NCBI GenBank assembly: GCA_023128895.1
Contig: JAGMDC010000003.1
Location: 2,254 to 66,253, forward strand
Reading direction: 5' to 3'
Length of the DNA stretch: 64,000 nt
DNA from: Candidatus Parcubacteria bacterium
Lineage (GTDB): Bacteria; Patescibacteriota; Minisyncoccia; Minisyncoccales; JAGMDC01
Shown: in pieces, positions 15,496 to 60,011 of the stretch
Layout: the number at the start of each line of letters is the position of its first letter
Position numbering within the stretch: the first letter of the stretch is position 1
The notes under the pieces: generated by a model
What the model was told of the DNA's origin: nothing
What the model saw: only the letters and a program-made list of their open reading frames with translations
Databases searched by the model: none
Translations under genes and position numbers: made by a program

Positions 15496-16429
15496 AAATT
15501 TACCACATTTAGACGATTTTCTATTGAACTTGCAAACCAATAATTATTCAGAAGAGACGCTTTATAACTACGAACGGGATTTAGAAGTTCTAGAAAAATT
15601 TTTAGAAAAAGTAAAAATTGATTTTGCTGATATTGATAAAAAAACTATCCTAAATTATAAAGCGTATTTGGCTTCGCAAGACAGAGAAACGCCAAAAAGC
15701 GAAAAAGGCAAGAAAAAATTGGCCAGTTATTCTATGAATAGAATGCTGTCTTCTTTTCGTTCATATTTAAAATTTTTGATAGATATGGATTATAAATGCC
15801 CTATTCCGCCCGAGGTTATAAAATTAGTGAAAACAGAGAAAAAACATCCGCGAGTTTCTGAATTTGACGAAATAGTAAAATTAATTGAATCCCCTACTCT
15901 TTTCGAACACAACGAAATTGTGGCCTTGAGAAATAGAGCAATATTTGAAACATTATTTTCCACAGGGATGAGGATATCCGAATTAATAAACTTAAAAATA
16001 ATTCAAATAGATAAAACAGGCCGTATTTTTATCAGAGGAAAAGGAAAAAAAGAAAGATTTGTATATTTAACTCCAAGGGCTGAAAAACATATTAAGGATT
16101 ATTTGAAGAATAAAGAGAAAACAAATTCTTCTTATTTATTCACCCCGCTTAGAGGCAGAAACGTTAAAATCAAAGATAAAAAAATTTCCCCTAATTATAT
16201 ACAGGAGAAAATGAAAAGATATAGAGAAATCTTAGGATTGAATATTCCTATTTCTCCACATTCGCTTCGCCACGCTTTTGCCACTTATTTAGCGGAAAAC
16301 GGGGCTAATCCAGCTGCTATCCAAATTCTTTTAGGCCACGAATCATTAGATACCACTACTCGTTATGTTCATGCTTCTGACAGATACGCTGAAAAAATAC
16401 ATTGTAAATATCACCCATTAAAAAAATGA
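15485..16429 (+). CDS. tyrosine recombinase XerC/XerD family, catalytically intact
   Basis: ALRNRAIFETLFSTGMRISEL (Arg I), HSLRHAFATYL (His-x-x-Arg-His) and LGHESLDTTTRYVH (His, Tyr). 11-bp overlap with the upstream paralog. Confidence 0.85.
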   Translation: MKNKNLPHLDDFLLNLQTNNYSEETLYNYERDLEVLEKFLEKVKIDFADIDKKTILNYKAYLASQDRETPKSEKGKKKLASYSMNRMLSSFRSYLKFLIDMDYKCPIPPEVIKLVKTEKKHPRVSEFDEIVKLIESPTLFEHNEIVALRNRAIFETLFSTGMRISELINLKIIQIDKTGRIFIRGKGKKERFVYLTPRAEKHIKDYLKNKEKTNSSYLFTPLRGRNVKIKDKKISPNYIQEKMKRYREILGLNIPISPHSLRHAFATYLAENGANPAAIQILLGHESLDTTTRYVHASDRYAEKIHCKYHPLKK

Positions 16430-16467
16430 ACCCCAGACTTTGGACTGGGTATTAAAAAGTCTGTGGT

Positions 16468-16539
16468 ACATTTTCTGCGTTCGCTTGCGAATACAAACAA
16501 ACTCGCTTCGCGTCGCTTGTTTGTATTCCCTCGCTTTAC
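16468..16539 (+). repeat. family-A variant module, copy A3, between convergent genes
   Basis: acattttctgcgttcgcttg-cgaatacaaacaa-actcgcttcgcgtcgc-ttgtttgtatt-ccctcgctttac. Confidence 0.75.
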
Positions 16540-16555
16540 TTAAAAATAATAATTT

Positions 16556-17257: not shown

Positions 17258-17303
17258 TATTTTTATGAGAGTGTTTTACGCTTTCAATTTTAATATAAAT
17301 CCT

Positions 17304-22244: not shown

Positions 22245-22249
22245 ATTCT

Positions 22250-22460
22250 TATAATGAGAGTGTAGAATAATATCTTTCGCCCGCCCGCATCGCTACGCGA
22301 AGCGTTGCGGGCGGGTAGCGAGAGTTTCAAAATTTGAGGCAAATTTTTCAAATAATTTTTGAAACCTGTATAGAATACAAGTTGAGAAAATTTTTGGGAA
22401 ATTTGACCAAATTTTGGAAGTCGCAGCAGAAAGGATATTGTTCTACACTCTCATAATAGC
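22250..22460. repeat. family-B long-hairpin element, copy B2, carrying a nested 36-bp GC-rich palindrome
   Basis: Terminal inverted repeats tataatgagagtgtagaataatatctttc / gaaaggatattgttctacactctcataata. The interior matches B1 except for an insertion at 22280..22315. Confidence 0.8.
22280..22315. repeat. family-C 36-bp GC-rich palindromic mini-element nested in B2
   Basis: cccgcccgcatcgctacgcgaagcgttgcgggcggg lies between ctttcg and tagcgag, which are contiguous in B1. Confidence 0.85.
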
Positions 22461-22467
22461 AAATTTC

Positions 22468-24140: not shown

Positions 24141-25296
24141 AATTTTTTTTCTTTTTCTTTTGCGTTTTTTTATAACAATCAACCAATTTTTTTGCGGATT
24201 TTTCTACTGAATAATCTTTAACTGTTTTTATTGCGTTTTCTGAAACTTTTTTTCTCAAATCAGAATTTTTTATTAACTTTGAAACCGTTCTACTGAATTC
24301 ATCTATATTTTGGGAGCATAAAAAGCCGTTTTGTTTATGCGTGATTATATCTTTGGCTCCGTTTGCCTTTACAGCGACAACAGGCAATCCGCTTGCCATT
24401 GCTTCTGTTAATACCGTTGGCTGGACTTCAGCCAATGAACTGAAAACAAATATATCGCCGGCAGAATAATAAAAAGGTATTTCTTGGCTGGATATTTCGC
24501 CAGCAAATATAACTTTTCTTTTAAGCCCAAATCTATCGCTTTTATGCTCTAAAAATTTCTTAGAAGGGCCGTCGCCCGCTAACATAAAATACGCGTTGGG
24601 ATGCTTATTCATAATCCTTTGAAACGATTTTAATAAAAATAAAAGATTCTTTTCAGGGCCCAAACGCGAAACAGTAAGCAAAAGCATGCTATCTTTGCCT
24701 AAATTATATTTTTCGCGCATAACCTGCGGATTGTTTCCCGAAAATTTTTTTAAATCAATCCCTGACGGAATAATTGTTATTGGCGTTTTTACTTTGTATT
24801 TTAAAAGCAAATTTTTGATATCTTCTGTAGGCGCAATTACTGCGTCGCAAGTATCAGCAAAAAAAGCGCAAAGCAGTTGCGCTAACGGCTTGCTGATTTC
24901 TCTTGGTATAATGGGCACATAATCAGTAGAAAGGTCGTCGTAACGGGTATGATGCGTAAATATTAATGGTATATTGAATTTCTTGGAGTAATACCAGGCA
25001 ATCTGTCCGCAAACTAAAAAATGCTGCGCGTGGATAATATCTAAATTTAATTTTTTAATAATCCTTCCAATGCGCGGAGAAAAAATCACAGGCAATGGAT
25101 ATGATGTTTTAAAGCGGAGGTCAATTGACTTAAATCGAAAAACCCTGGGGTTGTTGTCTTTGTAATTCTTATATTCTGCCGCAAAAATATAAACTTGATG
25201 CCCTTGTTTCTCTAATTCTTTTCTGTAATTCTCAATAGCGGTTATCACTCCGCTCACCCCGGGCAGATAAATATTGGTAAAAATTCCTATTTTCAT
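24100..25296 (-). CDS. GT4-family (GT-B) glycosyltransferase
   Basis: N-terminal MKIGIFTNIYLPGVSGV and C-terminal EVQPTVLTEAMASGLPVVA (EX7E-type). Confidence 0.8.
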   Translation of the reverse strand: MKIGIFTNIYLPGVSGVITAIENYRKELEKQGHQVYIFAAEYKNYKDNNPRVFRFKSIDLRFKTSYPLPVIFSPRIGRIIKKLNLDIIHAQHFLVCGQIAWYYSKKFNIPLIFTHHTRYDDLSTDYVPIIPREISKPLAQLLCAFFADTCDAVIAPTEDIKNLLLKYKVKTPITIIPSGIDLKKFSGNNPQVMREKYNLGKDSMLLLTVSRLGPEKNLLFLLKSFQRIMNKHPNAYFMLAGDGPSKKFLEHKSDRFGLKRKVIFAGEISSQEIPFYYSAGDIFVFSSLAEVQPTVLTEAMASGLPVVAVKANGAKDIITHKQNGFLCSQNIDEFSRTVSKLIKNSDLRKKVSENAIKTVKDYSVEKSAKKLVDCYKKTQKKKKKNYEKFSFLQICQNI

Positions 25297-26820: not shown

Positions 26821-27246
26821 TCAACCCGCTTGGTGCGCTGTTTGAGTGTCGTTGGCTATCTTTACATCAACTATATATAAACTTCCATCAAGTGTGCCTA
26901 CCTCGGCAGTTACCTTGTGAATTTTTCCAACTTCCCAAATAAAGTCTTCTGCATGTTTTGCGCAAAAAACCGTCTTATTTTCTCCGTCTTGGAAAACAAG
27001 GATATCGGGATTGTTATAATTAAAAGTGATTTCAATCAGTCTTCCAATTATCACGGTTTTTTCGTACCCAAAACTCTTCTCGGTAACTACGCTCACTTCT
27101 TTCTGGCTTTGATTTGACCAAGTATTATTCATATCTATACTGACTGTCTTTGTTTCTTCCGCTTCATCAATGCAGCCCATAGTCAAAGCGACGCCAAATA
27201 CCACTATTACAAGCAATACTGCTGTTTTCTTTTCCATTTTTTTCAC
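26821..27246 (-). CDS. putative lipoprotein
   Basis: Signal peptide with a lipobox-like sequence, VALTMGC. Confidence 0.5.
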   Translation of the reverse strand: MKKMEKKTAVLLVIVVFGVALTMGCIDEAEETKTVSIDMNNTWSNQSQKEVSVVTEKSFGYEKTVIIGRLIEITFNYNNPDILVFQDGENKTVFCAKHAEDFIWEVGKIHKVTAEVGTLDGSLYIVDVKIANDTQTAHQAG

Positions 27247-31380: not shown

Positions 31381-31584
31381 TTGCGGCAGAGCCGCATAAT
31401 TACTCGCTTCGCTATCAATTATTGCGGCTTCGCCGCATAATTACTCGCTTCGCTATCAATTATTGCGGCTTCGCCGCATAATTACTCGCTTCGCTATCAA
31501 TTATTGCGGCTTCGCCGCATAATTACTCGCTCGGTTTAAATACAAAAATGAATTTTTGTATTTTTCCCCTCACTCGCAATTATA
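31381..31584 (+). repeat. family-A element, copy A6, with its first module amplified to four tandem 41-bp units; no downstream gene
   Basis: attgcggc occurs at 31381, 31422, 31463 and 31504 (period 41 bp). It is followed by ctcggtttaaatacaaaaatgaatttttgtatttttcccctcactcgcaattATA, where ATG is degenerate. Confidence 0.85.
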
Positions 31585-31626
31585 GCAATTCCTAACAAAA
31601 ATTACCAGTACAGTTATTCTACACTC

Positions 31627-33548: not shown

Positions 33549-34460
33549 ATGATGGAACCTAAAAAATCAGATTTTGGAAAACAAGAGATTAAAAAATGTC
33601 CAGAGTGCGGATGCAGATATCTAATAACCAGCGATAAGGAAATTTACTGTTCTGGCTGTGGATTAGTGATTGCGGAAAATATAATTGACCTTGGCCCTGA
33701 ATGGCGGGCTTATGATGCTGAACAACACCAGTCAAAAACAAGAACCGGCCCTTCAATGAACTGGCGATATTATGATAAAGGATTGTCAACAGCCACGCCG
33801 CTTGCAAATAAAATACCAAACATCCGACAACCGCGCATTTCAGTCCAAGCAGTGTCAAAAGAAAAAACTTTAGCATTTACTCTTTCGGAAATGCACAGAA
33901 TATGCTCAGCGCTTCAATTACCAGATATAACAAAAGAAGAAGCAGCGAAATTATGCCATAATACGCGGAAAAAAAATCTATTTAGAGGTAGAAGAACAGA
34001 AGCAATAGCAGCGGCAATTGTTTATATCGTCTGCAAAGAACAAAAAATATCCAGAACGCTTTCAGAAATAGAAAAAGTATCAAGGGTGAAACAAAAAGAA
34101 ATCAGAAGAACTTATATATTCTTGCAAAAAGAGCTCAAATTAAAAACCAGACAAATTTCCAGCGCTGAATTAATACCGCGCTACTGCTCTAAACTCGGCT
34201 TGAACAGTCAAATAGAAAAATCGGCAAGAGAAATAATTAACAAAGCAGAAGAACAAAACTTAACCGATGGTAAACGGCAAGCAGGAGTCGCTGCCGCAGC
34301 AATTTATATCGCATGCTTTTTGGAGAGTACACATCGCACGCAAAAAGATATATCTCGGGTTGCAGGAATAACAACGCAGACACTCAGCACAAGATACAAC
34401 GAAATATCAAAAAAATTACAAATTAGAGATATGTATTTAATTCTGGACAAAAAAATATGA
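33549..34460 (+). CDS. TFB/TFIIB-family transcription initiation factor homolog
   Basis: N-terminal zinc ribbon CPECGCRYLITSDKEIYCSGCG. B-reader/linker signature IDLGPEWRAYD ... YDKGLST. Two cyclin-like repeats follow. Length is 303 aa. Confidence 0.8.
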   Translation: MMEPKKSDFGKQEIKKCPECGCRYLITSDKEIYCSGCGLVIAENIIDLGPEWRAYDAEQHQSKTRTGPSMNWRYYDKGLSTATPLANKIPNIRQPRISVQAVSKEKTLAFTLSEMHRICSALQLPDITKEEAAKLCHNTRKKNLFRGRRTEAIAAAIVYIVCKEQKISRTLSEIEKVSRVKQKEIRRTYIFLQKELKLKTRQISSAELIPRYCSKLGLNSQIEKSAREIINKAEEQNLTDGKRQAGVAAAAIYIACFLESTHRTQKDISRVAGITTQTLSTRYNEISKKLQIRDMYLILDKKI

Positions 34461-34495: not shown

Positions 34496-35620
34496 CTAAC
34501 AAATTATTCCACCTCCCAAGAGGTTTTCGCGAATATAAAAAACAACGGACTGGCCAAAAGTTATCGCGCGCTGGGGCTTATTAAACACTATTTTGTAATT
34601 TTTACCTTTGCTTTGATATTTCAAAATAGCAGAGGCGGGTTCGTGATGATAGCGAATTTTCGCTTTTACCCTCAAAGGCATTTTTGGTTTGTTTCCAGAA
34701 ATCCAATTAACATTTTCAGCTACAAGTTCTTTTTTATCTAATTCTTTTTCCTTTTTCGTAACGAATAAAATATTTTTCTTTATATCTTTTCCTGAAACAT
34801 AATAGGGACCGCCTGGCAAGCCAATGGATTTTCTTTGCCCAATTGTGTAAAAACACAAACCCTGATGCTCGCCGATAATTTCATTTTTTTGGTTCAAAAT
34901 TTTTCCCGGTTTTGATTTGATATATTTTTTTAAAAAAGCATTAACATCTTTGCCGATAAAACAAATATCCTGGGACTCTTTTCTTGTAAATCGCGAAATG
35001 CCAATTTTTTCAGCGATTTTCCCCGCTTCTTTTTTAGTATAATTTCCTAAAGGAAACAAAATTTTCTCTAATTCTTTTTGTTCTAACATCCATAAAAAAT
35101 AGGACTGGTCCTTGCTTCTGTCCTTTGCTTTCAACAATTGATATTCGTTACTCTGTGCTTTTTGTCGCAGGCGGGCCTGCCCGCAATGCTTCGCGTAGCG
35201 TTGCAGGCGAGCCTGCCCGCAATGCTTCGCGTAGCGTTGCAGGCGTGCGTAATGTCCGGTTGCGACGAAGTCAAAATCAATTTTTAATTTTTTAAGTTTT
35301 TTCACCAATAAATCAATCTTAATTTCTTTATTGCAGATAACGCAGGGATTAGGGGTTGTCCCCTGCTTAATTTCTTTGATAAACCTGTCAATAATTTTCT
35401 TTTTGAATTCTTTTTTAACATCTAAGACCAAAAATGGAACATTTAATTTTTTACAAATTTTTTCTGCGCGGATTTTTGCTTTTTGGAATTCCTTTGAATC
35501 AAACAAATCCAAAAAAACACCAACAACATTATATCCCTTTTGCTTTAACAAAAAACACGCAACACCAGAATCTTTTCCTCCTGACATTGCGCAAATAATT
35601 ATTTGATTTTCGCTTCTCAT
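34496..35620 (-). CDS. mnmA: tRNA-specific 2-thiouridylase
   Basis: PP-loop CAMSGGKDS, ATGHYAR and KDQSYFL. Contains an in-frame tandem repeat ARLQRYAKHCGQ x2. Confidence 0.9.
   Translation of the reverse strand: MRSENQIIICAMSGGKDSGVACFLLKQKGYNVVGVFLDLFDSKEFQKAKIRAEKICKKLNVPFLVLDVKKEFKKKIIDRFIKEIKQGTTPNPCVICNKEIKIDLLVKKLKKLKIDFDFVATGHYARLQRYAKHCGQARLQRYAKHCGQARLRQKAQSNEYQLLKAKDRSKDQSYFLWMLEQKELEKILFPLGNYTKKEAGKIAEKIGISRFTRKESQDICFIGKDVNAFLKKYIKSKPGKILNQKNEIIGEHQGLCFYTIGQRKSIGLPGGPYYVSGKDIKKNILFVTKKEKELDKKELVAENVNWISGNKPKMPLRVKAKIRYHHEPASAILKYQSKGKNYKIVFNKPQRAITFGQSVVFYIRENLLGGGIIC
35175..35246. repeat. two tandem family-C 36-bp GC-rich palindromes inside the mnmA coding sequence, in frame
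   Basis: gcctgcccgcaatgcttcgcgtagcgttgcaggcg(a/t) occurs twice. Its reverse complement is closely similar to 22280..22315. Confidence 0.85.
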
Positions 35621-36405: not shown

Positions 36406-36506
36406 AATTATGAGTGAGGGAAAAATACAAAAATGAATTTTTGTATTTTAACCGAGCGAGTAATTATGCGGCTTTGCCGCAATAATTATGCGGCTTTGCC
36501 GCAATG
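36406..36506 (-). repeat. family-A element, copy A7, abutting the tpiA ATG, with its first hairpin module duplicated
   Basis: On the minus strand: attgcggcaaagccgcataatt x2, then actcgctcgg-ttaaaatacaaaaattcatttttgtattttt-ccctcactcataatt-ATG. Confidence 0.85.
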
Positions 36507-38521: not shown

Positions 38522-38582
38522 CAAAATAAAAATTACAGCTTCTTGCCAATAAATTCAGCGAATTCACACATTCTGCAGGAAT
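38522..38582 (-). repeat. 61-bp direct repeat: orphan duplicate of the gap 3' end (putative distal att site)
   Basis: Matches 44591..44651 with 3 mismatches by hand count. The remnant translates as SCRMCEFAEFIGKKL-stop, versus SCRMCEFAEFIGKQL-stop in gap. Confidence 0.85.
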
Positions 38583-38626
38583 TTTCATCACAATATCTCT
38601 GGCATAGTTTAATTGCTTAGTATAAA

Positions 38627-39376
38627 TTATTGGCTGTTAATTTCATAAATCTTTCTTTCTCCACTTGGCAGTTCGTATTCCAGTTCTGTGTCAGAGAGCC
38701 ATTTGGGTTTGAAACGCCAAGAAGGGTCGGATGAAGCAATTTTAATCTTTTCTTTGGTGAAAAGATTGTAAATCCATAGATTTTTCATCTCTCCTCTTTG
38801 TCTCGCTTCTTCTTCCATCTGTTCAACCACTCCTCCAAAACCAGTAAAAGATGTCATATCAACATAAGCGAGCCATCCTTTGAAGTTCCACGCTCTTTCA
38901 GCTCCGGAAGGAAGATCAGAAGGCATAGACAAAATATCAGTTTTCCATGTTCCCATCTCTACACGGTAATATGCGGTTTCATAAGCTCCAACATATATAT
39001 CTCCCCATAAATATTTACCATCCGGAGTCCAAATACCTAACCCAAAACTGCCTGGTTCAATATCTGAATGTTTTTCCAATATCTCATCAAGGGTCAAAAC
39101 AAAAACATCCTCTTTTGTTTCTAAAACCTTGATGACAAGGGCATAATCAGGACTGCCGAGATAACCGCGTTCAAGAACAACATAATTTTCTGTAGGGTCA
39201 ACGCGAAAATCTCCAAGTATATTTTCAAAAGACCATTTAGCATAAGAAGCGATTAATGCTTTCCCTTTTCCGTTATAATTATATCTCCACAACTCTCTTC
39301 TATAATTTTCAAGTGGTATTTTTTTTTGATAATCATAATTAAAAGTTCTTATTGCATATACACCGCATTTATGCAA
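38627..39376 (-). CDS. hypothetical protein (TTG start only; possibly the continuation of the upstream ORF)
   Basis: A 249-aa ORF with no ATG near its 5' end. It begins 1 nt after the TGA of 39378..39689. Confidence 0.4.
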   Translation of the reverse strand: MHKCGVYAIRTFNYDYQKKIPLENYRRELWRYNYNGKGKALIASYAKWSFENILGDFRVDPTENYVVLERGYLGSPDYALVIKVLETKEDVFVLTLDEILEKHSDIEPGSFGLGIWTPDGKYLWGDIYVGAYETAYYRVEMGTWKTDILSMPSDLPSGAERAWNFKGWLAYVDMTSFTGFGGVVEQMEEEARQRGEMKNLWIYNLFTKEKIKIASSDPSWRFKPKWLSDTELEYELPSGERKIYEINSQ

Positions 39377-39377
39377 C

Positions 39378-39689
39378 TCAATTGGGTGATAATGATCTGG
39401 GATCTGGATTTGATATATTTATTTGAAAACTAAATATTTCTGTATTATCTTTTTTATTTTTGATAAAAATTTCGGCTATTCCTCCGCCCTCTTCTTTCTT
39501 TTTGATTTCATATCCTGCTACTTCATCATCTGCCAGACAAGCGCTATGAGCAACCAAATTTTCCTGCGCTCCTTTGTTTTCTTCTATTTCCCTTATTGCC
39601 CGCTGCTGATAATTCAATACAACTACAATTGCAAGAAAAAATGTTAAAACAACTATAATAAGATATAACCAATTTCTCATAAAACTCAA
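39378..39689 (-). CDS. hypothetical N-terminally membrane-anchored protein
   Basis: TM helix WLYLIIVVLTFFLAIVVVL. Length is 103 aa. Confidence 0.4.
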   Translation of the reverse strand: MSFMRNWLYLIIVVLTFFLAIVVVLNYQQRAIREIEENKGAQENLVAHSACLADDEVAGYEIKKKEEGGGIAEIFIKNKKDNTEIFSFQINISNPDPRSLSPN

Positions 39690-39892
39690 AGATGCTTAAT
39701 AATGTATTGAGTGTCGTTAATTAAAAGATTAGAACACTGGTCTGTGATGTACTGTCTTTCGGCAAAGAACTCAACTTCTCTGATAAACCATTCAAGAACA
39801 TTAGTTATTATTCCGTTCATAGTCTTCTCATACGCTTCTTTCATCCTTTCTAATACTTGTTCTATCGCTGGAAGTTTAGCTTCATCTATCAA
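39686..39892 (-). CDS. hypothetical 68-aa protein
   Basis: ORF with a 4-bp overlap onto the next gene. Confidence 0.35.
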   Translation of the reverse strand: MIDEAKLPAIEQVLERMKEAYEKTMNGIITNVLEWFIREVEFFAERQYITDQCSNLLINDTQYIIKHL

Positions 39893-40027
39893 TTCATCAT
39901 AATACCTTAATCGTTCTTATTTTTCTTGCTCTAATCTTTGAGCTGATTTCAGCTTGGCAATGAGCATATCTTTGACAAATCCCAGATATTATAAATATCC
40001 GATATCTACATCAATCCAGTTTAATTT

Positions 40028-40360
40028 TCATGTAGACAAGATCAAAGCCGTTATAAATATAAAAAATACAAATAATGATACTAACAAACCAATGATAGAT
40101 AGAACTATACCTACTATAGCATGACTCTTTTTGGTCGACCTTAACCCAGTTATTCCAAAAATTAAACCGAGAATAGCACTTATTATTGCTATAGAAAGTG
40201 TTATTGCATATATTGCTACATTTATTGCCAAACTTGTTAATACTTCTGTTAATACTCCTACGCTCGGTGCTATTAAGCTAATAATACCCAATATCAAGGA
40301 AAGAACAGCCTTGCCCTTTGGGTCGGATTTTAATTTAGAAACATCTTGATTATCGCTCAT
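40028..40360 (-). CDS. small multi-TM membrane protein
   Basis: A 110-aa protein with three or four hydrophobic helices. Confidence 0.5.
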   Translation of the reverse strand: MSDNQDVSKLKSDPKGKAVLSLILGIISLIAPSVGVLTEVLTSLAINVAIYAITLSIAIISAILGLIFGITGLRSTKKSHAIVGIVLSIIGLLVSLFVFFIFITALILST

Positions 40361-40491
40361 ATTTTTTAATGTCTTAATTTTTTATTATCTTTTAACGACC
40401 TTTTAAGGTTTAGTGAATTCAGAACAACCCGACAGCAAACCTAACACAGGAATTACAGCGTTCGGGCTACTGTAAACCGCAAAATGCGTAA

Positions 40492-43400
40492 TCACCAAGA
40501 TAGATGAAAAAATGAGTTAAGAGCCCCTAAAAACCGCGTACGTAAGCCAGTAGTATGAGATTTAAAAAACGAGGGAGCGGCAAACTTAACCGCTAATTGG
40601 GCGTATGACCAGGATTGGCTTAGCCGCATTACTGCTTTGTCCGGCCGTGCTTTAGATATTTCTTTCTCTGCTCTTGATAACTCTCTTTCGGCTTTCTCTA
40701 TGAAGCGATCAACTGTGTTTTGAAACATAGGATTTCCAATTGGTGTATTCTTGGCGTCATTGATAGCTGTTTCAGCTATTATCCTGTCTGCTTTGATTAG
40801 ATTATCTACAACTTGATTAAATACTGGCAGAACAGTGTTAATGGCTTCAATCTCGGTCTCTTCTTTCTCTGTGTCTAATCCGAATTTTTGCTTTATCTCT
40901 ATAATTCTTTCCAGGATTGATGTTTTTGTATTAAATATCCGTGCTTTATGATAAAGACGGCTTACAGCAAAGGATTGTTCAAAGAGAACTTTCCTACCCT
41001 GGTTTGAATCAAGACGAAAATCGTCAATCCACAAGGCATTATCCAAACTTTTATCAATATGCCTGATAATTGAATCAATTTCTCTATTTATTGCTTTATT
41101 ATTAGTTTTACTTTCTTCCAAGAGAGATATGCTTTGTTCTTTGAGAAGTTTAGGGGTTTGCCAGGGAATTGCCGGCAGAACAGCGATATCTGTTGTTCCT
41201 GTGATTGGCTGTTCTAATTCCTGCCCTGGCTCTATTTGCTCAGTGCTAATATTTGATTTGTATTGTTGGCTGGCTTCATCGTAATAAATTGCTTGAACCT
41301 CATAAGTTTCAATCCCATCAGTTAATTCTTGAAGTTCAGGATAAGTTTCTATCATTTCTTGGATATCTTTGCTGGAAACAACGAAATGAACCTTTGTTTC
41401 CTCGGGCACAAAAATCCATTCATCGTCGTAAACAAGATCCCCCGAGGCAATGGCTTCTGGAATTTGATTTTCATATTCTCCTGTTTCGTAATTCATGCCA
41501 GTATGTCTACCTAGCTCATCGTAAGCATGAAGGTCAACATCAGCAGAAATGGACTTGTAAGAAACATTTAAGGGGGTGGTCAAATTATTTGAATGAGCAG
41601 AAGCAAAAGAAACGAAAAAAGTTAAAATAAAGATAATTGCTAAAAAAATAATAATTCGCAAAATCGTTTTTTTTGCTTTTTGCTTTTTGATAATCCAAAA
41701 TCGTAAAAAGAACAGAGATATAATGAGCAGAGCTAAAATTTGCTGCAAACCGCTTGTTATCATTGAAAGATATCTTACCGATGCATACTCATAAATTTGT
41801 TCAATTTTATATCCAAAGACATGTAAATAAAATCGTTCGCCGGGTCCCATTGGATGAAGATGAAAATAAAGAATTTCTTTCTGCTCTTCCTTATCAAATT
41901 CAGAAGATATCTCATTAACTTTGAAAGGATCAGAAGCGAACTCCCAAATTTTTTCTAATAAGGACAATTTTGGTCGCAAAACAGTTCCAACATAATTTGA
42001 AAGGGTACATTCAGAAATTTGAGCATTAATTTTAAAACTATCGGGTTCAGCAATACGATTATTTATTTCAACGAAAACATTGTTTATCGGATCTTTAAAT
42101 GGCGAGTTCAAGGGATCTGGAATGGGCGGAACTAATGGACCTAAAGAAATTATACCCACAGATTTAGCAATATTAACAAAATTAATCGTAGTTGTCTCAT
42201 TATTTACTGTAATTTCTTTGGGCGAAATTTTATAAATTACCAAAGGATTATCTGGTAAATCTGTATCCCATTTACTATATGCAGAATTATTAGTTCTGGC
42301 TTCTAAAAGATAATATGAGTCATTAGCAAGATTATACCTTGCCACTTCATCGCCAAACTTCATTGTTTCTAATGATTCGATTGTATGACTGCCATATTCT
42401 ACAACATTTTCCTGAAGCCAGCCGAGCTTAATTTTGCTAAATGAAGAGAAATAAGATGTGATATTTTGTGTTACGCTCCAAATATTTGTGGCGCCACCCA
42501 TTATATCAAAATAATTGGGAACAGATCCGCCATAACCGCCATCGTAACAAGGGTTTGCTGTAGAATATAAATCACATAAAGGATAACCTGTTAATATATT
42601 ACCCAAAGCGTGTCCTAATTCATGAGACCAGACATATTTTGTGCCATTTTCCGCAACTGCTATCCAATTATTAATGAACTCGGTCGGACTATTAATTGGC
42701 GCGGGGGAAAAAGAAGGCGTCCACCATTGAGATGAAAGAGGATATTTTTGCAAAGAAAGTAATTTTTGTTCTGAATCTCCCCAATAAATAACTATAACAC
42801 TTTGATAATCATTATAATCTATATCTTCATCAGCTTTATTGATTGCGTCCCAAATAAATTGCTCTGTCCTGTCCTCATCTTTTACTTTTATTTCTCTACC
42901 CTGTCCGTCAAGACCAAAGCTTATTTCCTGAACTTGAGAAAAGTTTTTTCCGTAATGTTTCTGAGTTTGCTCTAACTTATAATTCAATTCATTGTTGTCA
43001 TAAACATCAAAATTTAAATTAAAAAGTCCTCCATTGCAAGTTTTTGTAATTGGATCCCATTTTCCAAACGAATTTTCACAATAATAATCTTCAACTTGTT
43101 CAGTAATGCTTTCAAAGTATTCTTTGTTATGCGAAAAATCAAAAAATTTATCGGGATCACTCGGTTCAGCTAAAATCACCGCAATATTGTAGGTTGGAGA
43201 TTGAGGCGCTTCCCACCCGCTCTCTTGTATAAATGGGTATCTGTCTCGGCAAGGATGAAGACAATAATATCCATAATGATAGCCGCCCCAGAAGTTATAA
43301 GAAAGATATGGGGTATCGCCTATTCCATCACTGCCAGGTTGGTCTTGTTCGGGTCCGCTCTTTTCATCTACGCCTGTATAATCGCTCCAATAATTGCCGC

Positions 43401-44577
43401 CTGATGGATAATCATTGTCTAAAAAATCAGTATCGCAAACAAACATCTCGGGACTATTGTGGTTATCAATAAAATTATTGTGAAATATCTCATTATCCTT
43501 GCTGCACATTACCATTCCAGCTGGCCAGTACCAATGACAAAGCATGCGCAAACCATATTCTGTATTCTCTCTCAAAGTATTTTCAGTGACAGTATTGTAA
43601 TGAGAAAGGAATATATAAATACCATGTTGATTTAAGCTAATATCATTATCTGTAATTGTATTATAACTGGAATAATACAGACAGATTCCAAAATCGTTAT
43701 TTGAATTGACAATATTGTCAACGAGAATATTATTGTCAGAATGCGTTAAACGAATTCCGTGAGATTTATTATTGGAAACATTATTGTTGTTAAGGGTGCT
43801 ATTTGAACCATAATAAAAAAAAGCGCCTGAATGAAAATTATTTACAGTACAATTTTTAACAGCAACATTAGTTTTGCGATTTACATAAACGCCGTATCCA
43901 GTATCAGAGCCTGTCATGTTATAGCCAGCGCAGTCCAAAGTAATATTACTCTCTGTTATCTCTATACTTTCAATTAAATCCTGGGTTAAAGTACAGGTTG
44001 AGGTTCCTTCATTCCAGATGCCATAATCAGAGCATTCTTCCGGCAGAAATACTACATTATCGCTTTCAGACAGGGTTTGAATATCTTTGGATTGAATCCC
44101 TGCATCCGCTTCGGGCTGAATCCAAATATGATGGGATTGGGTTAAGTCTTGAGTCCAATTATGTTCTCCATTTCTATTGGAAACAAAAACAGCTTTGTTT
44201 TTGTAGCTGTCTTGGAATTTGTAATAGGTTGTATTTGGCTCTAATCCGCTAATAGTTAAATTAGTAGAAGCAAAATCGGTTGAGGAGCTAATATCCATAC
44301 TAATCATTCTTGGGATTGATTCTATATCTATTGTTATTTCTTCAGTGCTTTTCAGAGAAATATTGAGATATTCGCTGTCAATTATTTCAAAATAACTGCC
44401 TGTTCCTTCAACTTTTCCAGATATTTGCGGTTCCAGCAATGCGTCCTCGGCAAAGGTTACTGCCGGTATTATCATTAAGAATGCCAAACTTGCTAAGACA
44501 ATTTTCATTGGTTTATATTTTTCCGTAATCCGTTTTGCTGTTGTTTTAATTTCTTTTTGACATTTTCTTTTATTCAT
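40492..44577 (-). CDS. giant surface protein: parallel beta-helix repeats plus HExxH metallopeptidase motif, two internal TM helices and a helical C-terminal domain
   Basis: Signal anchor. Beta-helix repeats of NosD/PbH1 style (NNNVSNNKSHGIRLTHSDNNILVDNIV...). SHELGHALG. TM pair ILALLIISLFFLRFWII / IIIFLAIIFILTFFVSF. Length is 1361 aa. Confidence 0.65.
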   Translation of the reverse strand: MNKRKCQKEIKTTAKRITEKYKPMKIVLASLAFLMIIPAVTFAEDALLEPQISGKVEGTGSYFEIIDSEYLNISLKSTEEITIDIESIPRMISMDISSSTDFASTNLTISGLEPNTTYYKFQDSYKNKAVFVSNRNGEHNWTQDLTQSHHIWIQPEADAGIQSKDIQTLSESDNVVFLPEECSDYGIWNEGTSTCTLTQDLIESIEITESNITLDCAGYNMTGSDTGYGVYVNRKTNVAVKNCTVNNFHSGAFFYYGSNSTLNNNNVSNNKSHGIRLTHSDNNILVDNIVNSNNDFGICLYYSSYNTITDNDISLNQHGIYIFLSHYNTVTENTLRENTEYGLRMLCHWYWPAGMVMCSKDNEIFHNNFIDNHNSPEMFVCDTDFLDNDYPSGGNYWSDYTGVDEKSGPEQDQPGSDGIGDTPYLSYNFWGGYHYGYYCLHPCRDRYPFIQESGWEAPQSPTYNIAVILAEPSDPDKFFDFSHNKEYFESITEQVEDYYCENSFGKWDPITKTCNGGLFNLNFDVYDNNELNYKLEQTQKHYGKNFSQVQEISFGLDGQGREIKVKDEDRTEQFIWDAINKADEDIDYNDYQSVIVIYWGDSEQKLLSLQKYPLSSQWWTPSFSPAPINSPTEFINNWIAVAENGTKYVWSHELGHALGNILTGYPLCDLYSTANPCYDGGYGGSVPNYFDIMGGATNIWSVTQNITSYFSSFSKIKLGWLQENVVEYGSHTIESLETMKFGDEVARYNLANDSYYLLEARTNNSAYSKWDTDLPDNPLVIYKISPKEITVNNETTTINFVNIAKSVGIISLGPLVPPIPDPLNSPFKDPINNVFVEINNRIAEPDSFKINAQISECTLSNYVGTVLRPKLSLLEKIWEFASDPFKVNEISSEFDKEEQKEILYFHLHPMGPGERFYLHVFGYKIEQIYEYASVRYLSMITSGLQQILALLIISLFFLRFWIIKKQKAKKTILRIIIFLAIIFILTFFVSFASAHSNNLTTPLNVSYKSISADVDLHAYDELGRHTGMNYETGEYENQIPEAIASGDLVYDDEWIFVPEETKVHFVVSSKDIQEMIETYPELQELTDGIETYEVQAIYYDEASQQYKSNISTEQIEPGQELEQPITGTTDIAVLPAIPWQTPKLLKEQSISLLEESKTNNKAINREIDSIIRHIDKSLDNALWIDDFRLDSNQGRKVLFEQSFAVSRLYHKARIFNTKTSILERIIEIKQKFGLDTEKEETEIEAINTVLPVFNQVVDNLIKADRIIAETAINDAKNTPIGNPMFQNTVDRFIEKAERELSRAEKEISKARPDKAVMRLSQSWSYAQLAVKFAAPSFFKSHTTGLRTRFLGALNSFFHLSW

Positions 44578-44590
44578 TATTACAAAATTG

Positions 44591-44651
44591 CAAAATAAAA
44601 ATTACAGCTGTTTTCCAATAAATTCAGCGAATTCACACATTCTGCAGGAAT
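44591..44651 (-). repeat. 61-bp direct repeat partner covering the true 3' end of gap (putative proximal att site)
   Basis: See 38522..38582. Confidence 0.85.
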
Positions 44652-54153: not shown

Positions 54154-56733
54154 TTATTTAATATTTAAAGTTTCAAACATCTTCTCTTCGAATTTATTTT
54201 CATCCTCGCTCTGATAAAACGGCACACCTACAATTTTATACTTCTGCGATTTCGAAAATTCTAAAACTCTGTCTTTAAATTTATCTTTAATTTCTTCTAA
54301 AAATTTACTCTTCCATTTCTCTCCTTCAGCTAAATATTTTCCTTTCGGTTCTAGAAATAATTGATAAGTAATACTTCTACCAATTTTATCAACTAAAAAC
54401 AAAAGGTAATCCGGTTCAAACGCTTGGCCGTCACTAAAATTATAAATTTTCAGCTGTCTTTCATTACGAACTAAGTAAATCTTTTTAAAATTCTTTCTTA
54501 ATTCGTTTATCTGCCGGTCAATCAATTTAACAAATGTTTTTTCTTCACTTGTGCCATAATTAGCATTAAACACATACCATTCTTTATCTTCTAAAAATTC
54601 AATCTGGCCATCTTCTCTTTCGCTACGCATTTTGACTTTTATTTTCTTATCATTAAATTTATCTTTAATCAGATATGGCATAAATTCTTGACTACCGCTA
54701 TATTCAGTCAAATTTTCTTTAATTTGTTTTTCTATTTCGCCAAGAAGTTTTAAAACTGCCCGAAATTTATCTTCATTAGTTATAGTCGGAGTATATTTTT
54801 CTACCTGAAAATTGATTTTAAAACCAGCTAAATATTTTCCCTTTTCAACAAACTCGCTCGCAGAATCTATTTCCGGAACATATTTTTTTAAAGAACCAAA
54901 ATCGAAAAAATCATTCTTTGCCAAAGCGTTTCTAATAATGTGATAATCTATTTCCTTGAGGCTAATTTCCTTTCCTGTCCTTTTCACGCCTTCGCGTATT
55001 AAATCTTCGTCTTCCTTAAACACTGTTGTCTGTTTGCCTTCTCCGGATAATACCTTAAAGTCAATGCTTTTATTTCTTACCCCCAAATCATCAATCGATT
55101 TTACCTTATCAAAACTTATTGGTCTTTTTTCATTGGCATAAACTAATCCAAATTTATAAAAATTTGTTTTCTTAAATTCCTCTTTCAATTTCAACTCAAC
55201 CTCTACCTCATTTTCGTCAATCATTCCCTTTTCAATTAGAGCAATTTTTATCTCTGAAATATATCTTGATTCGTTATGGCTATGATAATGTAATTCTTCC
55301 AAAACACGGAGTTCATTATCTAAATTTTTATCATATTTCCTCTTAAACTTATCGTCAACTTCGCTCAACTTAAACGGAAAATAACGAGCGCCCCTGCCAA
55401 TTAACTGAGCTTCGGAAATAGTGGTTTTGCCAGGTCGGTTATTCCTGCCGTCTCTGGTTTCGTATAGTCGGACAATATCAAATAAATTCAAAACGTCCCA
55501 ACCCTCGTTTAGTTTCTGAACCGCAAAAATAGCCCGAATTTGATTATTTTTATCTTCAAGAGAGTTCAAAAGCAATTGATGTTTTTCTTTTTCCTGTTCT
55601 TCATTTACGCTTAAAGTTTTACTCTTGGCAAAACTATTTTTTAGTTTTTTAACTAAAATAGCATTGGTAATTTTATTGCTTTTAAAAAACTCAAACGCTT
55701 TTTGTAAAATTTCAATATTAGTTCTTTTTTTAATATTTTCAATATCCTTAATAGATAAATTATCAATTATTTTGTGAAACAATTTTTTATTACTTTCTGA
55801 TTGAGCAATTGTTTGTTGCGCCTTGAATAAAATTACCGGCTTTAAATTAATTCCGTGTTTGCCGGCTACCTCTTGTCGATATTGGCTTAAAATTATTGCC
55901 TGAATTATTCTCTCTCCCCTATCCGTATCTGTATGCAGTAATTCAACATCTTTTGAATAACCGTCGTTTCTAAATTCTTTTAATTCGTATTTGTAAATAA
56001 TTTTATTCCTATATTTATCAACTATATTTATGTCCGTCAAATCCATTGTCGCGGTAAACTCTAGTAATATATTTTCATTGTCTTGTTTAAATATTTTCTC
56101 AACCGTATTTTCCCAATTCGGCTTTTCAATCATTTCTTTTTGTGTATTTTTTGTCTGCACTTGTCCGTGATGCGCCTCGTCTGAAATTAAAACAATTTTT
56201 TTATCTTTAAAATCTTCCAAAGTCAAAGAGTTTTCTTTTTCATTATGCAAATCGCTATGTAATTTCTGAATAGTGGTAAAACAAATATTAATATCTCTAT
56301 CGCTTATACCGTCAAAATTTTCTACCTGTTTAATTTGCGTTTGTTTATTTTCAAAAAATATTTTTTGATTAAATAAATATTTGCTGGATAAATTATTCAG
56401 AAAGTTATCTTTGGTTTTTTCAATAATATTAGTGGAATTAACGAAAAATAAAAAATTTCTATATCCTCGCTCGTATAAATACAAAATCAATCCAGCCATA
56501 ATTAAAGTTTTGCCCGAGCCGGTAGCCATATTAAAAAGGAAGTGTAAAGGATATTCTTTATTCTCAAAATCGCGATTATAACAATGAAAAAAGCGCGCAA
56601 ACGCCTCTTTTTGATATTCGCGCAACTCAAAATTAGGATTTAGATTTTCCGACAAAAAACTCGGAATTTCTTTCGGCAATAATCCCATCTTTGACACACT
56701 ATTCAATTGCTCATATAAAAATTCTTGAGGCAT
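54154..56733 (-). CDS. res: Type III restriction endonuclease Res subunit
   Basis: SF2 helicase motifs MATGSGKT and SDEAHH. C-terminal PD-(D/E)xK endonuclease motif EPDYLLF ... LEPKG. Confidence 0.9.
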   Translation of the reverse strand: MPQEFLYEQLNSVSKMGLLPKEIPSFLSENLNPNFELREYQKEAFARFFHCYNRDFENKEYPLHFLFNMATGSGKTLIMAGLILYLYERGYRNFLFFVNSTNIIEKTKDNFLNNLSSKYLFNQKIFFENKQTQIKQVENFDGISDRDINICFTTIQKLHSDLHNEKENSLTLEDFKDKKIVLISDEAHHGQVQTKNTQKEMIEKPNWENTVEKIFKQDNENILLEFTATMDLTDINIVDKYRNKIIYKYELKEFRNDGYSKDVELLHTDTDRGERIIQAIILSQYRQEVAGKHGINLKPVILFKAQQTIAQSESNKKLFHKIIDNLSIKDIENIKKRTNIEILQKAFEFFKSNKITNAILVKKLKNSFAKSKTLSVNEEQEKEKHQLLLNSLEDKNNQIRAIFAVQKLNEGWDVLNLFDIVRLYETRDGRNNRPGKTTISEAQLIGRGARYFPFKLSEVDDKFKRKYDKNLDNELRVLEELHYHSHNESRYISEIKIALIEKGMIDENEVEVELKLKEEFKKTNFYKFGLVYANEKRPISFDKVKSIDDLGVRNKSIDFKVLSGEGKQTTVFKEDEDLIREGVKRTGKEISLKEIDYHIIRNALAKNDFFDFGSLKKYVPEIDSASEFVEKGKYLAGFKINFQVEKYTPTITNEDKFRAVLKLLGEIEKQIKENLTEYSGSQEFMPYLIKDKFNDKKIKVKMRSEREDGQIEFLEDKEWYVFNANYGTSEEKTFVKLIDRQINELRKNFKKIYLVRNERQLKIYNFSDGQAFEPDYLLFLVDKIGRSITYQLFLEPKGKYLAEGEKWKSKFLEEIKDKFKDRVLEFSKSQKYKIVGVPFYQSEDENKFEEKMFETLNIK

Positions 56734-56742
56734 ATTTTATTT

Positions 56743-57708
56743 CTAATTTTTTTCAGCTAAATATTTTTGTTTATTATATTTTTCCAACTGCTCCCTAACT
56801 TTCTTTTCCATTTTCAAACGAGAAACATTGCCGGCGTTTTGTAAAATTTCTTTGTCATTCAAAATCAAAAAATCGTCCAGTTTTTTAATCCAATTTTTCA
56901 TATACATCACTCTTTGCTCTACACTCTGCAATTCCGCGAAAGATAAAAATTGCTCTACTAATAAATTTAATCTTTTCAATTCTAATTCTTGTAAATAATT
57001 TTTAGCGATTTCTGCCTGTTCGCGGGTAATAATCTCGCCTTTCCAATTTGTAAGTCCCAAATTCTCTTTTTTGTTGTCAATTCTATTATTAACAATTTCC
57101 GCCGCGGTCAAACCAGTAATCGCAAAATGAAATTTATTCTGCACCATTGCGAAAAATTGTTTGGCGTAATCGGTTTTGGAATTATAATCCGCGCTGGTAG
57201 CAAAAACATCTCTCACTTTTTGATAAAAATTAGCCTCCGAAGTTCTGATTTTTCTAATCCGCTCTTCCCATTCTCCAAAATATGTTTTTGCCACCCGACC
57301 CTCCGCTAATCGTTCATCATCCATTGTGAAACCTTTAATAATATAATCTCGCAATTTTTGCGTCGCCCATATTCGGAACTGCGTGCCGCGAAGAGATTTT
57401 ATGCGATAACCTACTGAAATGATAACATCCAAATTGTAACAATCTATATCTCTTACCACCTCTCTACCACCCTCTTTTTGAACTATCCGGAATTTCCGGA
57501 TAGTTGAATTTTCTACTAATTCTCCTTCTGAAAACATATTTTTAATATGCTCATTTATTGTTCTCATATCTTTGTCAAAAAGCTCTGCCATCTGTTTTTG
57601 GCTAAGCCAAACCGTCTCGTTTTCCAGCCGAACTTCAATTTTTGTTTCTCCGTCTTCGGTGTTATAGATAATAATTTGATTATTTTTTTCTTTTCGATTT
57701 TTGGTCAT
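56743..57708 (-). CDS. rhuM: RhuM-family protein
   Basis: IIIYNTEDGETKIEVRLENETVWLSQKQMAELF ... VISVGYRIKSLRGTQFRIWATQKLRDYIIKGF is characteristic of RhuM. Confidence 0.85.
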   Translation of the reverse strand: MTKNRKEKNNQIIIYNTEDGETKIEVRLENETVWLSQKQMAELFDKDMRTINEHIKNMFSEGELVENSTIRKFRIVQKEGGREVVRDIDCYNLDVIISVGYRIKSLRGTQFRIWATQKLRDYIIKGFTMDDERLAEGRVAKTYFGEWEERIRKIRTSEANFYQKVRDVFATSADYNSKTDYAKQFFAMVQNKFHFAITGLTAAEIVNNRIDNKKENLGLTNWKGEIITREQAEIAKNYLQELELKRLNLLVEQFLSFAELQSVEQRVMYMKNWIKKLDDFLILNDKEILQNAGNVSRLKMEKKVREQLEKYNKQKYLAEKN

Positions 57709-57751
57709 AAGTTTATAATGTCTAATTGTTCACAAAGAAATTGTTGAGATA

Positions 57752-58441
57752 TTAAAAATTCGTTTTTGCATCTCCATAAATTCCAGTTTTATAAGTCTGA
57801 ACATTTAATAAAAAATCAAAATGATATTTCTGACTAAAATCACTTTTTATTTTTCTCACTAATTTTTGAAAATTAGAAGGGTCGGCTGGTTGATTGTAAG
57901 TAAAAATCCAAATAATCCCTTTATCATTCAAATTTTCACCCTTATTCTTTTGCTCTTTCGTAGACTTTATTTGTTCTAAAGATTTTTTTACTTTCTCGTT
58001 TATTCTTTTTTCCCCAATAGAAGAAACAAACTTAGCCTCACAATATATACAGAATTCGCCTAGTAATAATTCGAAATCACACATTTGAACATTTGATTCA
58101 GTCAATTTGGTTAATACTTTATTATTTAGCTTGTATCCCCTTATTATATGCTTTGCTAAATCAATTTCAGCAAAATGATCTCCTACTTTTTTGACAGCCT
58201 GCTCTTCTGATAATGAAACGCTTAATTCATTTTTAAATCCTAACAAGGTTTCGAAATTTTTAATGCATCTGTCATATTCCATTATTAATTTCTTGTCATC
58301 TTGTATAAAACCTTCCCAATCATTTTTTAAAAGCATAACAACCTCGCTGTTGCTTTTTGTAATTGCTAAAAATTGATCTAATGAATTTTGTGCTATTGCC
58401 TTGAGATATCTAAGTCGTTTATTATTTTTTTCATTTTTCAT
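57752..58441 (-). CDS. hypothetical 229-aa protein with a possible PD-(D/E)xK nuclease motif
   Basis: CDFELLLGEFCIYCEAKF (D-x12-E-x-K). The ATG at 58441 overlaps the end of a mod remnant. The track start at 58450 is GTG. Confidence 0.5.
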   Translation of the reverse strand: MKNEKNNKRLRYLKAIAQNSLDQFLAITKSNSEVVMLLKNDWEGFIQDDKKLIMEYDRCIKNFETLLGFKNELSVSLSEEQAVKKVGDHFAEIDLAKHIIRGYKLNNKVLTKLTESNVQMCDFELLLGEFCIYCEAKFVSSIGEKRINEKVKKSLEQIKSTKEQKNKGENLNDKGIIWIFTYNQPADPSNFQKLVRKIKSDFSQKYHFDFLLNVQTYKTGIYGDAKTNF

Positions 58442-58586
58442 AAAATTCACTATTTAATTTCTTATCTCCTTCGCTCACTTTAAAATCTCTGTCCTTAATC
58501 TCACTCAAATTTACATAAAGCTGATTTTTGTTAAGGATATCAAAAAGGGAACGTTTTTGTTTGGCAACGGGAAGTTTTTTAAATTC
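58431..58586 (-). pseudogene. remnant 2 of a Type III mod 3' end (51 codons plus stop)
   Basis: Translates as EFKKLPVAKQKRSLFDILNKNQLYVNLSEIKDRDFKVSEGDKKLNSEFYEK-stop. 41 of 51 residues are identical to the Mod C-terminus. A TAG lies immediately upstream. Confidence 0.85.
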
Positions 58587-58637
58587 CTATCAGCCGTGTT
58601 TTTAAAATTCTTCGGTGATTAGTTTTTGGATTTGATA

Positions 58638-60007: not shown

Positions 60008-60011
60008 ATAT

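Follow-up and report, generated by a model that had tools for sequence, protein, structure and literature searches.

What places a short repeat exactly against the start codons of several genes? The question is raised by a 64,000-nt stretch of a Candidatus Parcubacteria genome (GenBank assembly GCA_023128895.1, contig JAGMDC010000003.1, forward-strand positions 2,254 to 66,253), referred to here as the window, in which a repeat of ~78 nt, here called family A, repeatedly ends at the base before an ATG. A preliminary description, made from the letters alone, had offered two answers: a 5′ leader or promoter cassette shared by the genes in the manner of a regulon, or a mobile repeat that inserts at start codons. 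Comparison with relatives of the host showed family A to be mobile, and we put a probability of about 0.7 on the reading that it is a small non-autonomous mobile element (~78 nt, with two structurally constrained hairpins and no coding capacity) that inserts in one orientation at AT, often at start codons. It is most likely a new family resembling MITEs (miniature inverted-repeat transposable elements), repetitive extragenic palindromes (REPs) or palindrome-associated transposable elements (PATEs), and selfish rather than a shared regulatory leader.

Copies of the repeat in the window

The window holds six family A loci (c1–c6), four of them at a true ATG, one truncated at the start of murD and one away from any start; a seventh, c7, lies just outside the window (contig L024). 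The survey of the host genome covered ~84 kb, reached by walking from window proteins. The copies and their parts are as follows.

385..462, + strand: c1, full copy; ATG at 463; 94.2 bits
7722..7762, + strand: c5, truncated copy (hairpin 1, linker and left arm of hairpin 2) fused to murD; 30.5 bits
18311..18234, − strand: c2, full copy; ATG at 18233; 102.8 bits
29495..29418, − strand: c3, full copy; ATG at 29417; 99 bits
31380..31502, + strand: three head-to-tail 41-nt modules (hairpin 1, ATAATTACTCGCT, TCGCTATCAATT) without hairpin 2
31503..31581, + strand: c6, full copy, not at a start codon; 87.6 bits
36505..36484, − strand: extra 22-nt module (hairpin 1 plus AATT) beside c4 and head-to-tail with it
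36483..36406, − strand: c4, full copy of 78 nt; tpiA ATG at 36405; 98.6 bits
36483..36466, − strand: hairpin 1 of c4
36465..36454, − strand: linker of c4, AATTACTCGCTC
36453..36418, − strand: hairpin 2 of c4
36417..36406, − strand: tail of c4, TCACTCATAATT

Coordinates confirmed the four copies for which the preliminary description had claimed a gene-facing position, and c1–c4 each end, as it had said, in CCTC(A/G)CTC(A/C)TAATT followed directly by ATG. The genes concerned encode a secreted K/E-rich protein of 619 aa (c1), a flavin adenine dinucleotide (FAD)-dependent oxidoreductase of the geranylgeranyl-reductase family (c2), a D-Ala-D-Ala carboxypeptidase (dacA; c3, which occupies the aspS-dacA spacer) and TpiA (c4). 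That these ATGs are the true starts was also upheld, the same ATG opening tpiA and the FAD oxidoreductase gene in element-free relatives. Alignment of the copies reproduced the proposed layout of hairpin 1, linker, AT-rich hairpin 2 and tail, which reads ATTGCGGC-nnn-GCCGCAT, AATTACTCGCTCGG, an AT-rich hairpin of 14–16 bp, CCTC(A/G)CTC(A/C)TAATT and ATG. Within the window the hairpin-1 pattern has 10 matches against 0.07 expected, and the 3′ motif has 5 against 0.46 expected.

The truncated copy that had been described as running into murD was found at the position listed for c5; the sole in-frame start of murD is a GTG at 7761..7763, within the left arm of hairpin 2. The off-start copy, c6, has the start of a 122-aa gene on one side and the 3′ end of murC on the other, and its own 3′ end reads CGCAATT followed by AT-AGCAATTCC (AATT-ATA-GCAA). 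At tpiA, c4 is identical in four other assemblies of the same species, and assembly GCA_030628815.1 also carries the locus; the 22-nt module beside it, which likewise has AATT at its end and AT next, seems to have arisen from the element by deletion.

Filled and empty sites in relatives

Strains were compared by eye and by pairwise DNA alignment. Exact-protein matches for the FAD oxidoreductase (c2) and dacA (c3) led to the same strain only, and empty sites were reached through homologue searches. Three orthologous filled/empty pairs have exact junctions. At tpiA, a Logan contig whose TpiA is 100% identical (L006) reads ..GATAAGC|ATGAAGACA, with a spacer of only 5 nt after acs, and the window reads ..GTAAAC(ATTGCGGC...100 nt...CATAATT)ATGAAGACA, the insert being given in parentheses; in a more distant relative (L013) the site is also empty, and acs and tpiA overlap at ATGA. 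At the FAD oxidoreductase gene, contig L018, whose protein is 95% identical, reads ..AATTTATT|ATGAAAATTGG (longer left flank ..GAGGAATAAAATTTATT); ~60 nt of identical flank lie on each side, between which the window adds a 78-nt insert, and three further contigs (L019, L020 and L021) are likewise empty. The third pair runs the other way: a GT4 glycosyltransferase gene of another species (L019/L020) has a copy ending exactly at its ATG, and for this gene the window is the empty site (GATAAAGC|ATGAAAATAGG, with an ATGA overlap at 25293..25296). These pairs, together with six independent start-codon insertions that all lie at AT|GAA, bore out the second of the two earlier answers, a mobile repeat that inserts at start codons.

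Two more loci lack the element in relatives. The spacer orthologous to the c6 locus has none in L012, and murD of L018 starts ATGAAAATAAAA with no element, so that c5 is best read as a full insertion at AT|GAAAAT in murD that would later have lost its 3′ half by internal deletion. Absence from relatives makes c2, c4, c5 and c6 very recent (the comparison being with the relative of 95%-identical FAD protein for c2 and c5, and with that of identical TpiA for c4). As L018 has no copy over 17.8 kb, a stretch in which the window has both c2 and c5, family A has expanded recently in the window lineage.

The genes at start-codon copies, namely tpiA, the D-Ala-D-Ala carboxypeptidase gene, the FAD oxidoreductase gene, the gene of the secreted K/E-rich protein, murD and the glycosyltransferase gene, are unrelated in function. 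A leader RNA or regulon element should be conserved at orthologous, related genes; only the dacA copy is shared, and c2, c4, c5 and c6 are missing from relatives. Together with the lack of an Rfam match and of a placed promoter (both below), this told against the regulon-like leader or promoter cassette of the preliminary description.

Family A was also found in other Parcubacteria contigs, in tandem and at non-start positions; in other genomes most copies are off-start, and one is antisense between two genes. A pattern scan of genome contigs returned a single chance match, in a metagenome-assembled genome (MAG) of Sulfurimonas, and in a metagenome scan the first pattern had 0 matches and a relaxed pattern matched 4 contigs.

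Junctions and target preference

AT stands at both junctions in all 13 copies (left ..AT|TGCGGC, right ..AATT|AT|N), and the empty sites have a single AT each, that of the ATG; the AT is either a 2-bp duplication or a terminal AT carried by an element that inserts beside another AT. With ...AATT as the end of the element and an AT at either junction, the ATG is rebuilt after insertion. A TA duplication of the mariner or Correia kind was considered and rejected: it fits 12 of the 13 left junctions yet needs TATG at the empty sites, and AT fits better because the tpiA and GT4 empty sites read GCATG.

The orientation of the element at its target is fixed, and all six start-codon copies are in sense. 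On the right, these six are followed by GAA(A/G) (GAAA in five, GAAG in one) and the six off-start copies by AGCA (three), ACTA, ATCA and ACCA; over the 12 independent right flanks, position +1 is a purine in 12/12 and position +4 is A in 11/12. On the left, every one of the 13 flanks ends in AT and 8/13 end in TTAT, the pentanucleotides being ATTAT (six), TTTAT, CTTAT, AGTAT (two), AACAT (two) and AATAT. The extreme ends, TGCGGCnnnGCCGCA on the left (TGCGGC...) and CTCATAATT on the right (...CATAATT), are not inverted repeats; inverted repetition is confined to the interior (ATAATTA/TAATTAT and, in addition, the palindrome of hairpin 2). At every junction a palindrome results, ATAATTAT, which at start codons is CATAATTATG.

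From these features we propose a mechanism in which family A would insert in fixed orientation at AT within a T-rich|A-rich context, roughly (A/T)TT-AT|R-N-(A/C)-A, whose best genomic match would be the way genes usually begin, ...TTATGAAA (Met-Lys). A copy entering a start codon between its T and its G would rebuild the ATG at the 3′ end of the element and leave the reading frame untouched. Intragenic insertions would be purged by selection in a window that is 93% coding (~35% GC) and whose genes overlap or are separated by 5–13 nt, so that the ATG may often be the only tolerated target; and in a genome that hardly uses Shine-Dalgarno (SD) sequences, moving the upstream sequence 80–100 nt away would not be lethal. 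Each inserted copy would also recreate an ...AATTAT target at its own end, which would explain head-to-tail arrays.

Such arrays are seen at several loci. Some new copies stand directly after the ..AATTAT end of an older one; contig L014 carries a head-to-tail pair whose second copy has a hairpin-1 variant that is compensated (GTAAC/GTTAC), L015 carries copies arranged in the same way, and the module arrays of c4, c6 and c7 are head-to-tail with periods of 22, 41 and 60 nt. This arrangement would suit an element that restores its own target at its end. Scaffold gaps (runs of N) lie within tandem hairpin-1 arrays of several assemblies, at L002 10185..10285, L004 7656..7754, L005 7410..7508 and L024 7161..7260, and the array at the c6 locus causes such gaps in other assemblies; because of these gaps, array copy numbers are unreliable, and the repeats fragment MAGs of the candidate phyla radiation (CPR).

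The junctions also bear on a different route, in which the repeat would spread by site-specific or homologous recombination rather than by transposition, either through an Xer- or integron-like tyrosine recombinase acting on folded hairpins or through gene conversion between AT-rich starts. The junction palindrome that is always formed and the preference on both flanks of the insertion point would suit it, folded-hairpin recognition is known for integron attC sites, and two tyrosine recombinase genes lie at 14080..16429. These recombinases, however, look like ordinary XerC/D-type genes and are conserved in copy-free relatives, no cassette open reading frames (ORFs) or attI-like site were seen, and AT is all that the empty sites have in common with the element ends, all of which leaves this route improbable.

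Placement at start codons

In the part of the host genome that was surveyed, five of the seven loci (c7 included) lie at start codons. If the left flank alone were the target (AT, TTAT or ATTAT), start codons would make up 6–16% of the sites outside coding sequence, giving P(5 or more of 7) ≤ 0.0016. If the target is ATGAA, start codons account for 22 of 40 tolerated sites, and a placement of five in seven is therefore what a target that includes GAA predicts. GAA follows all six of the start-codon insertions, compared with ~40% of starts that carry it (P about 0.005, our calculation from window counts), which argues that the sequence after the cut matters.

The hairpins and the proposed AUG-sequestering stem

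A folding and covariation check, suggested in the preliminary description, gave strong support to hairpins 1 and 2 and none to a third, outer stem. For the two hairpins, pairing holds in 91.7% of cells, and in 12 of the 22 pairs both sides change, with one G-U intermediate; 0 of 500 shuffles reached the observed value, and slid controls were 43–59% paired. Hairpin 1 is GC-rich with a stem of 6–7 bp and begins 2 nt from the left junction, while the AT-rich hairpin 2, with a stem of 14–16 bp (it folds as a 16-bp stem), ends ~14 nt from the right junction, and the two share no sequence. Whole-element folding gave z-scores of −4 to −8. Covariation of this kind is expected if a transposase reads the hairpins, and alone it is no proof of RNA function.

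The outer stem had been proposed to sequester the AUG, and on this view family A would be a translational riboregulator whose 8-bp stem (CAUAAUUA/UAAUUAUG) hides the start codon and whose genes are co-regulated as a regulon. Part of the observation behind it is accurate, in that the 8-nt complement (CATAATTA/TAATTATG) is exact in three of four copies (c2, c3 and c4; inexact in c1, CATATTTA), and the stem is present in the minimum-free-energy fold of c3. The corresponding folds of c1, c2 and c4 lack it, AAUUAU there serving to lengthen hairpin 1; the outer stem shows no compensatory change, and all of its variant cells (9/9) are unpaired. The complement itself is trivially explained by the internal inverted repeat plus the junction AT. 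A search of Rfam gave no match at the gathering threshold, hits listed by E-value falling far below it, and with insertions this recent and genes this unrelated we consider AUG sequestration very improbable.

Translation starts and expression signals

According to the preliminary description, the element-bearing genes lacked an SD sequence and other genes in the window had strong ones. The second statement proved mostly wrong, only 2 of 57 starts in the window having a strong SD; since SD sequences are rare across the whole window, their absence is no mark of the element-bearing genes. Matches to a 4-mer SD-like sequence precede 6 of 57 starts, which is the background rate, and the two strong sites (AAAGGAGGTG and AGGGAGGTG) precede small ORFs without a Pfam match at 13128..13373 (−) and 26821..27237 (−). 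The scarcity of SD sites accords with a report that about half of Parcubacteria are without the anti-SD motif (PMC9297842). We infer that the tolerance of insertions depends on SD-independent initiation.

Many gene pairs in the window overlap at ATGA. The copies c2, c3 and c4 and the copy on L019 lie between co-directional genes which in relatives are 5–13 nt apart or overlapping, and these junctions are operon-internal rather than promoters. Promoters were judged by the sigma-70 consensus only, those of CPR bacteria being poorly known, and by that measure no conserved −35/−10 pair could be placed in c1–c4 for a transcription start upstream of the ATG. One sigma-70-like match, TTTACA-16-AATTAT, occurs in c2 and c3 only, which carry the TGT/ACA hairpin variant, and in neither c1 nor c4; it cannot serve the gene because the last bases of its −10 hexamer are the AT of the ATG.

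Three other promoter candidates were rejected. A bacterial leaderless promoter was set aside on finding no −10-like hexamer at −12..−7, CATAAT at 1 nt from the ATG being too close. As a general promoter box, CTCNCTCAT has only 7 matches, mostly family A elements themselves. An archaeal leaderless-promoter cassette, an idea prompted by a TFIIB/TFB gene near tpiA, was ruled out by the bacterial gene set of the window (bL9, bL27, MnmA, CtpA, MurC/D, MraY and PBP5); NCBI names the identical TpiA as that of Candidatus Parcubacteria.

These results also concern a domesticated expression cassette, mobile as observed, with copies kept at starts for a benefit to the downstream gene. Candidates for the benefit are a promoter within the element, a 5′ hairpin that stabilises the RNA, an insulator or terminator between genes of an operon, and a structured spacer for ribosome re-initiation without SD. 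Such a cassette would be in keeping with a start-codon placement that exceeds the left-flank-only prediction, with the sense orientation of six copies in six, with hairpin covariation across the family and its G-U intermediate, with the retention of a dacA copy in two species, and with three copies in place of overlaps or very short spacers, at which translational coupling would have been lost. Set against this are the recency of c2, c4, c5 and c6, the restriction of the sigma-70-like match to one hairpin variant in which it overlaps the ATG, the lack of functional relation among the downstream genes, the mostly off-start and in one case antisense copies elsewhere, and the fact that a hairpin-recognising transposase would be equally expected to produce the covariation. 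We therefore regard domestication as an unlikely account of the family.

Likeness to known mobile elements

Family A is short, non-coding, multi-copy and precisely polymorphic between filled and empty sites, as are bacterial MITEs in the broad sense. Its closest likeness is to elements derived from IS200/IS605 insertion sequences (PATEs) and to group A IStrons. Elements of the IS200/IS605 type and group A IStrons insert after ATTAT or TTTAT and carry subterminal palindromes (PMC4227781). Like IS200/IS605 PATEs, family A has no terminal inverted repeats at its true ends, has subterminal hairpins conserved in structure and keeps a fixed orientation relative to an asymmetric T-rich target; as with IStrons and their IS200/IS605 relatives, ATTAT or TTTAT stands on its left, in 7 of 13 copies. 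Unlike them, its hairpins are dissimilar to each other, its right flank is biased too (purine at +1, A at +4), and the AT at both junctions could be a 2-bp duplication, which IS200/IS605 does not make.

Correia elements of Neisseria (also known as NEMIS or CREE) are short, abundant, non-coding and insertion-polymorphic, have a dinucleotide at both junctions and give rise to co-transcribed hairpin RNA near gene starts; they have 26-bp terminal inverted repeats and duplicate TA. Family A resembles them in being short, non-coding, insertion-polymorphic and near gene starts, with a dinucleotide at both junctions, and differs from them, as from MITEs of the terminal-inverted-repeat (DDE) type in general, in that its extreme ends are not inverted repeats and its junction dinucleotide is AT. 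Lacking terminal inverted repeats, it cannot be placed among MITEs of that type, and to our knowledge exact start-codon insertion is not a described property of Correia elements.

The comparison with REPs and bacterial interspersed mosaic elements (BIMEs), which are mobilised by REP-associated tyrosine transposases (RAYTs), is similarly divided. Hairpin 1 is a GC-rich palindrome of REP size with a covarying stem, and it occurs in tandem mosaic arrays; family A nevertheless has no GTAG-type tetranucleotide, its arrays are head-to-tail and not inverted doublets (REPINs), it lies at the 5′ and not the 3′ ends of genes, and no RAYT gene was seen. Without GTAG and inverted doublets it does not belong to the REP/RAYT class. 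Rickettsia palindromic elements (RPEs) insert in frame inside ORFs and are translated, and the gene is preserved. Family A is like them a selfish palindromic repeat that survives at seemingly intolerant positions through preservation of the gene; unlike them, it stays just outside the ORF and rebuilds the start codon. In the literature we found no description of the family A element, nor of MITEs in CPR genomes.

Our best guess for the enzyme is a single-strand HUH transposase (IS200/IS605- or RAYT-like) or another site-selective recombinase that would be encoded elsewhere in the genome. Several points weigh against the reading of family A as a selfish element mobilised in this way. No transposase or autonomous partner was seen in ~190 kb of this and related genomes, and no TnpA or TnpB gene in particular in the ~84 kb of the host or ~100 kb of relatives. 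Hairpin 1 does not resemble hairpin 2, whereas the ends of IS608-type elements carry similar hairpins, and a right-flank preference is not expected for insertion of the IS200/IS605 type. The left flank of c2 differs slightly from that of the empty site (AAAAAAATTAT compared with AAAATTTATTAT), and the flank statistics come from a small sample of 12–13 independent sites. The 18 non-coding ATGAA sites hold none of the six GAA-type insertions, an absence for which P is about 0.03 under pure targeting; an extra pull towards starts, through selection or a longer target, is thus possible and perhaps likely, if modest. Lastly, a copy also stands at the dacA start in L012 (14373..14450); its loop differs, and two pairs of its hairpin 2 show compensatory changes. 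This dacA copy, common to two species whose proteins are ~75–80% identical, is either an old retained insertion or a parallel hit, and it may be functional there.

Other repeats and genes in the window

Alongside family A, the window holds further repeats. Family B (~180–220 nt) is present at 10244..10422 and 22245..22467, with fragments at 17258..17281 and 31606..31626. It has terminal inverted repeats of ~22 bp (TATGAGAGTGTAGAACAATATC), and its ends (..CACTCTCAT(T)ATAA) lie 4–6 nt before the ATGs of the genes at 10423.. and ..22244; these ends resemble the 3′ tail of family A, and three family A copies share one of its flanks (TTTGCTAT|). Family C, at 7632..7700 (+) and 16467..16541 (−), has the form AAGTAAAG|CGAGGGAA-[variable hairpin]-CGAGCGAACGCAGAAAATGTA, both copies being preceded by AAGTAAAG, and the frame GCGAGG-hairpin-CGAGCGA is similar to family A on the other strand. 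A tyrosine recombinase gene directly adjoins one copy; the other entered its site upstream of murD after divergence from L018. Palindromes rich in GC (GCCCGCCCGCATCGCTACGCGAAGCGTTGCGGGCGGG and related sequences), conspicuous in a genome of 35% GC, occur at 22275..22315, at 35176..35252 and at about 9960..10060 of L002: one is inside family B, one within the coordinates of the mnmA ORF, and one assembly has a tandem pair within murC. Like the RPEs of Rickettsia, they may have inserted into coding sequence.

The TFIIB/TFB homologue near tpiA (33549..34460, +) is full length, with a zinc ribbon and two cyclin repeats (E = 1.5e-41 against the Pyrococcus TFB core), and sits in an otherwise bacterial Parcubacteria genome. 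It is syntenic within the species, duplicated in L012 (8410..9345 and 9448..10371, both −) and absent from L013; its nearest outside homologues (~45–49% identity) are from ANME-1/Methanophagales and other methanogen-related archaea, and one match is annotated as coming from a Minisyncoccales bacterium. Minisyncoccales is the order containing a parasite of methanogens, and the gene may be host-derived or an effector. None of the papers searched links TFIIB to CPR bacteria.

Three larger regions were also recorded. An island of ~6 kb (38522..44651) encodes a NosD/beta-helix protein of 1361 aa and three small ORFs without a Pfam match, is bounded by 61-nt direct repeats (95% identical) that correspond to the GAPDH gene's 3′ end, and is absent from L012, where acs almost directly follows GAPDH; it looks like an integrated element. 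At about 16400..16550 the genes converge (+ on the left, − on the right) and the cumulative GC skew peaks, and the two tyrosine recombinase genes (14080..15495 and 15485..16429) adjoin; this looks like a replication terminus or dif region. A defence-type cluster at 54154..63978 encodes a type III restriction-modification methylase, an AAA_15/AAA_21 ATPase, an AlbA_2 (SLFN-like) protein, a RhuM-family protein and a DEAD/ResIII helicase, and holds an internal 158-nt repeat family (58429, 60010 and 61964).

Significance for Parcubacteria

A more far-reaching version of the mobile-element reading, which we offer tentatively and hold to be possible rather than probable, is that of an element homing to start codons: its transposition system would recognise AT|GAAA at gene starts and its own end would restore the ATG, and only SD-independent initiation in this lineage would have allowed it to spread. 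By splitting formerly overlapping or coupled genes with a stable 16-bp hairpin it would rewire operon expression, and some copies, such as the one at dacA, could have been co-opted.

Small mobile repeats have scarcely been described in CPR/Patescibacteria, and this genome has at least three families of them in addition to the GC-rich palindromes. Their arrays break assemblies, and the elements can mislead the prediction of gene starts and promoters in CPR MAGs. The filled and empty alleles among near-identical strains amount to a natural experiment on translation starts and on the effect of an 80-nt structured insert in coupled genes. Insertion at a start codon with self-repair is an unusual survival route for selfish DNA in a streamlined genome that is 93% coding, and it points to a consequence of SD-independent translation, namely that the position just before the AUG becomes neutral ground.

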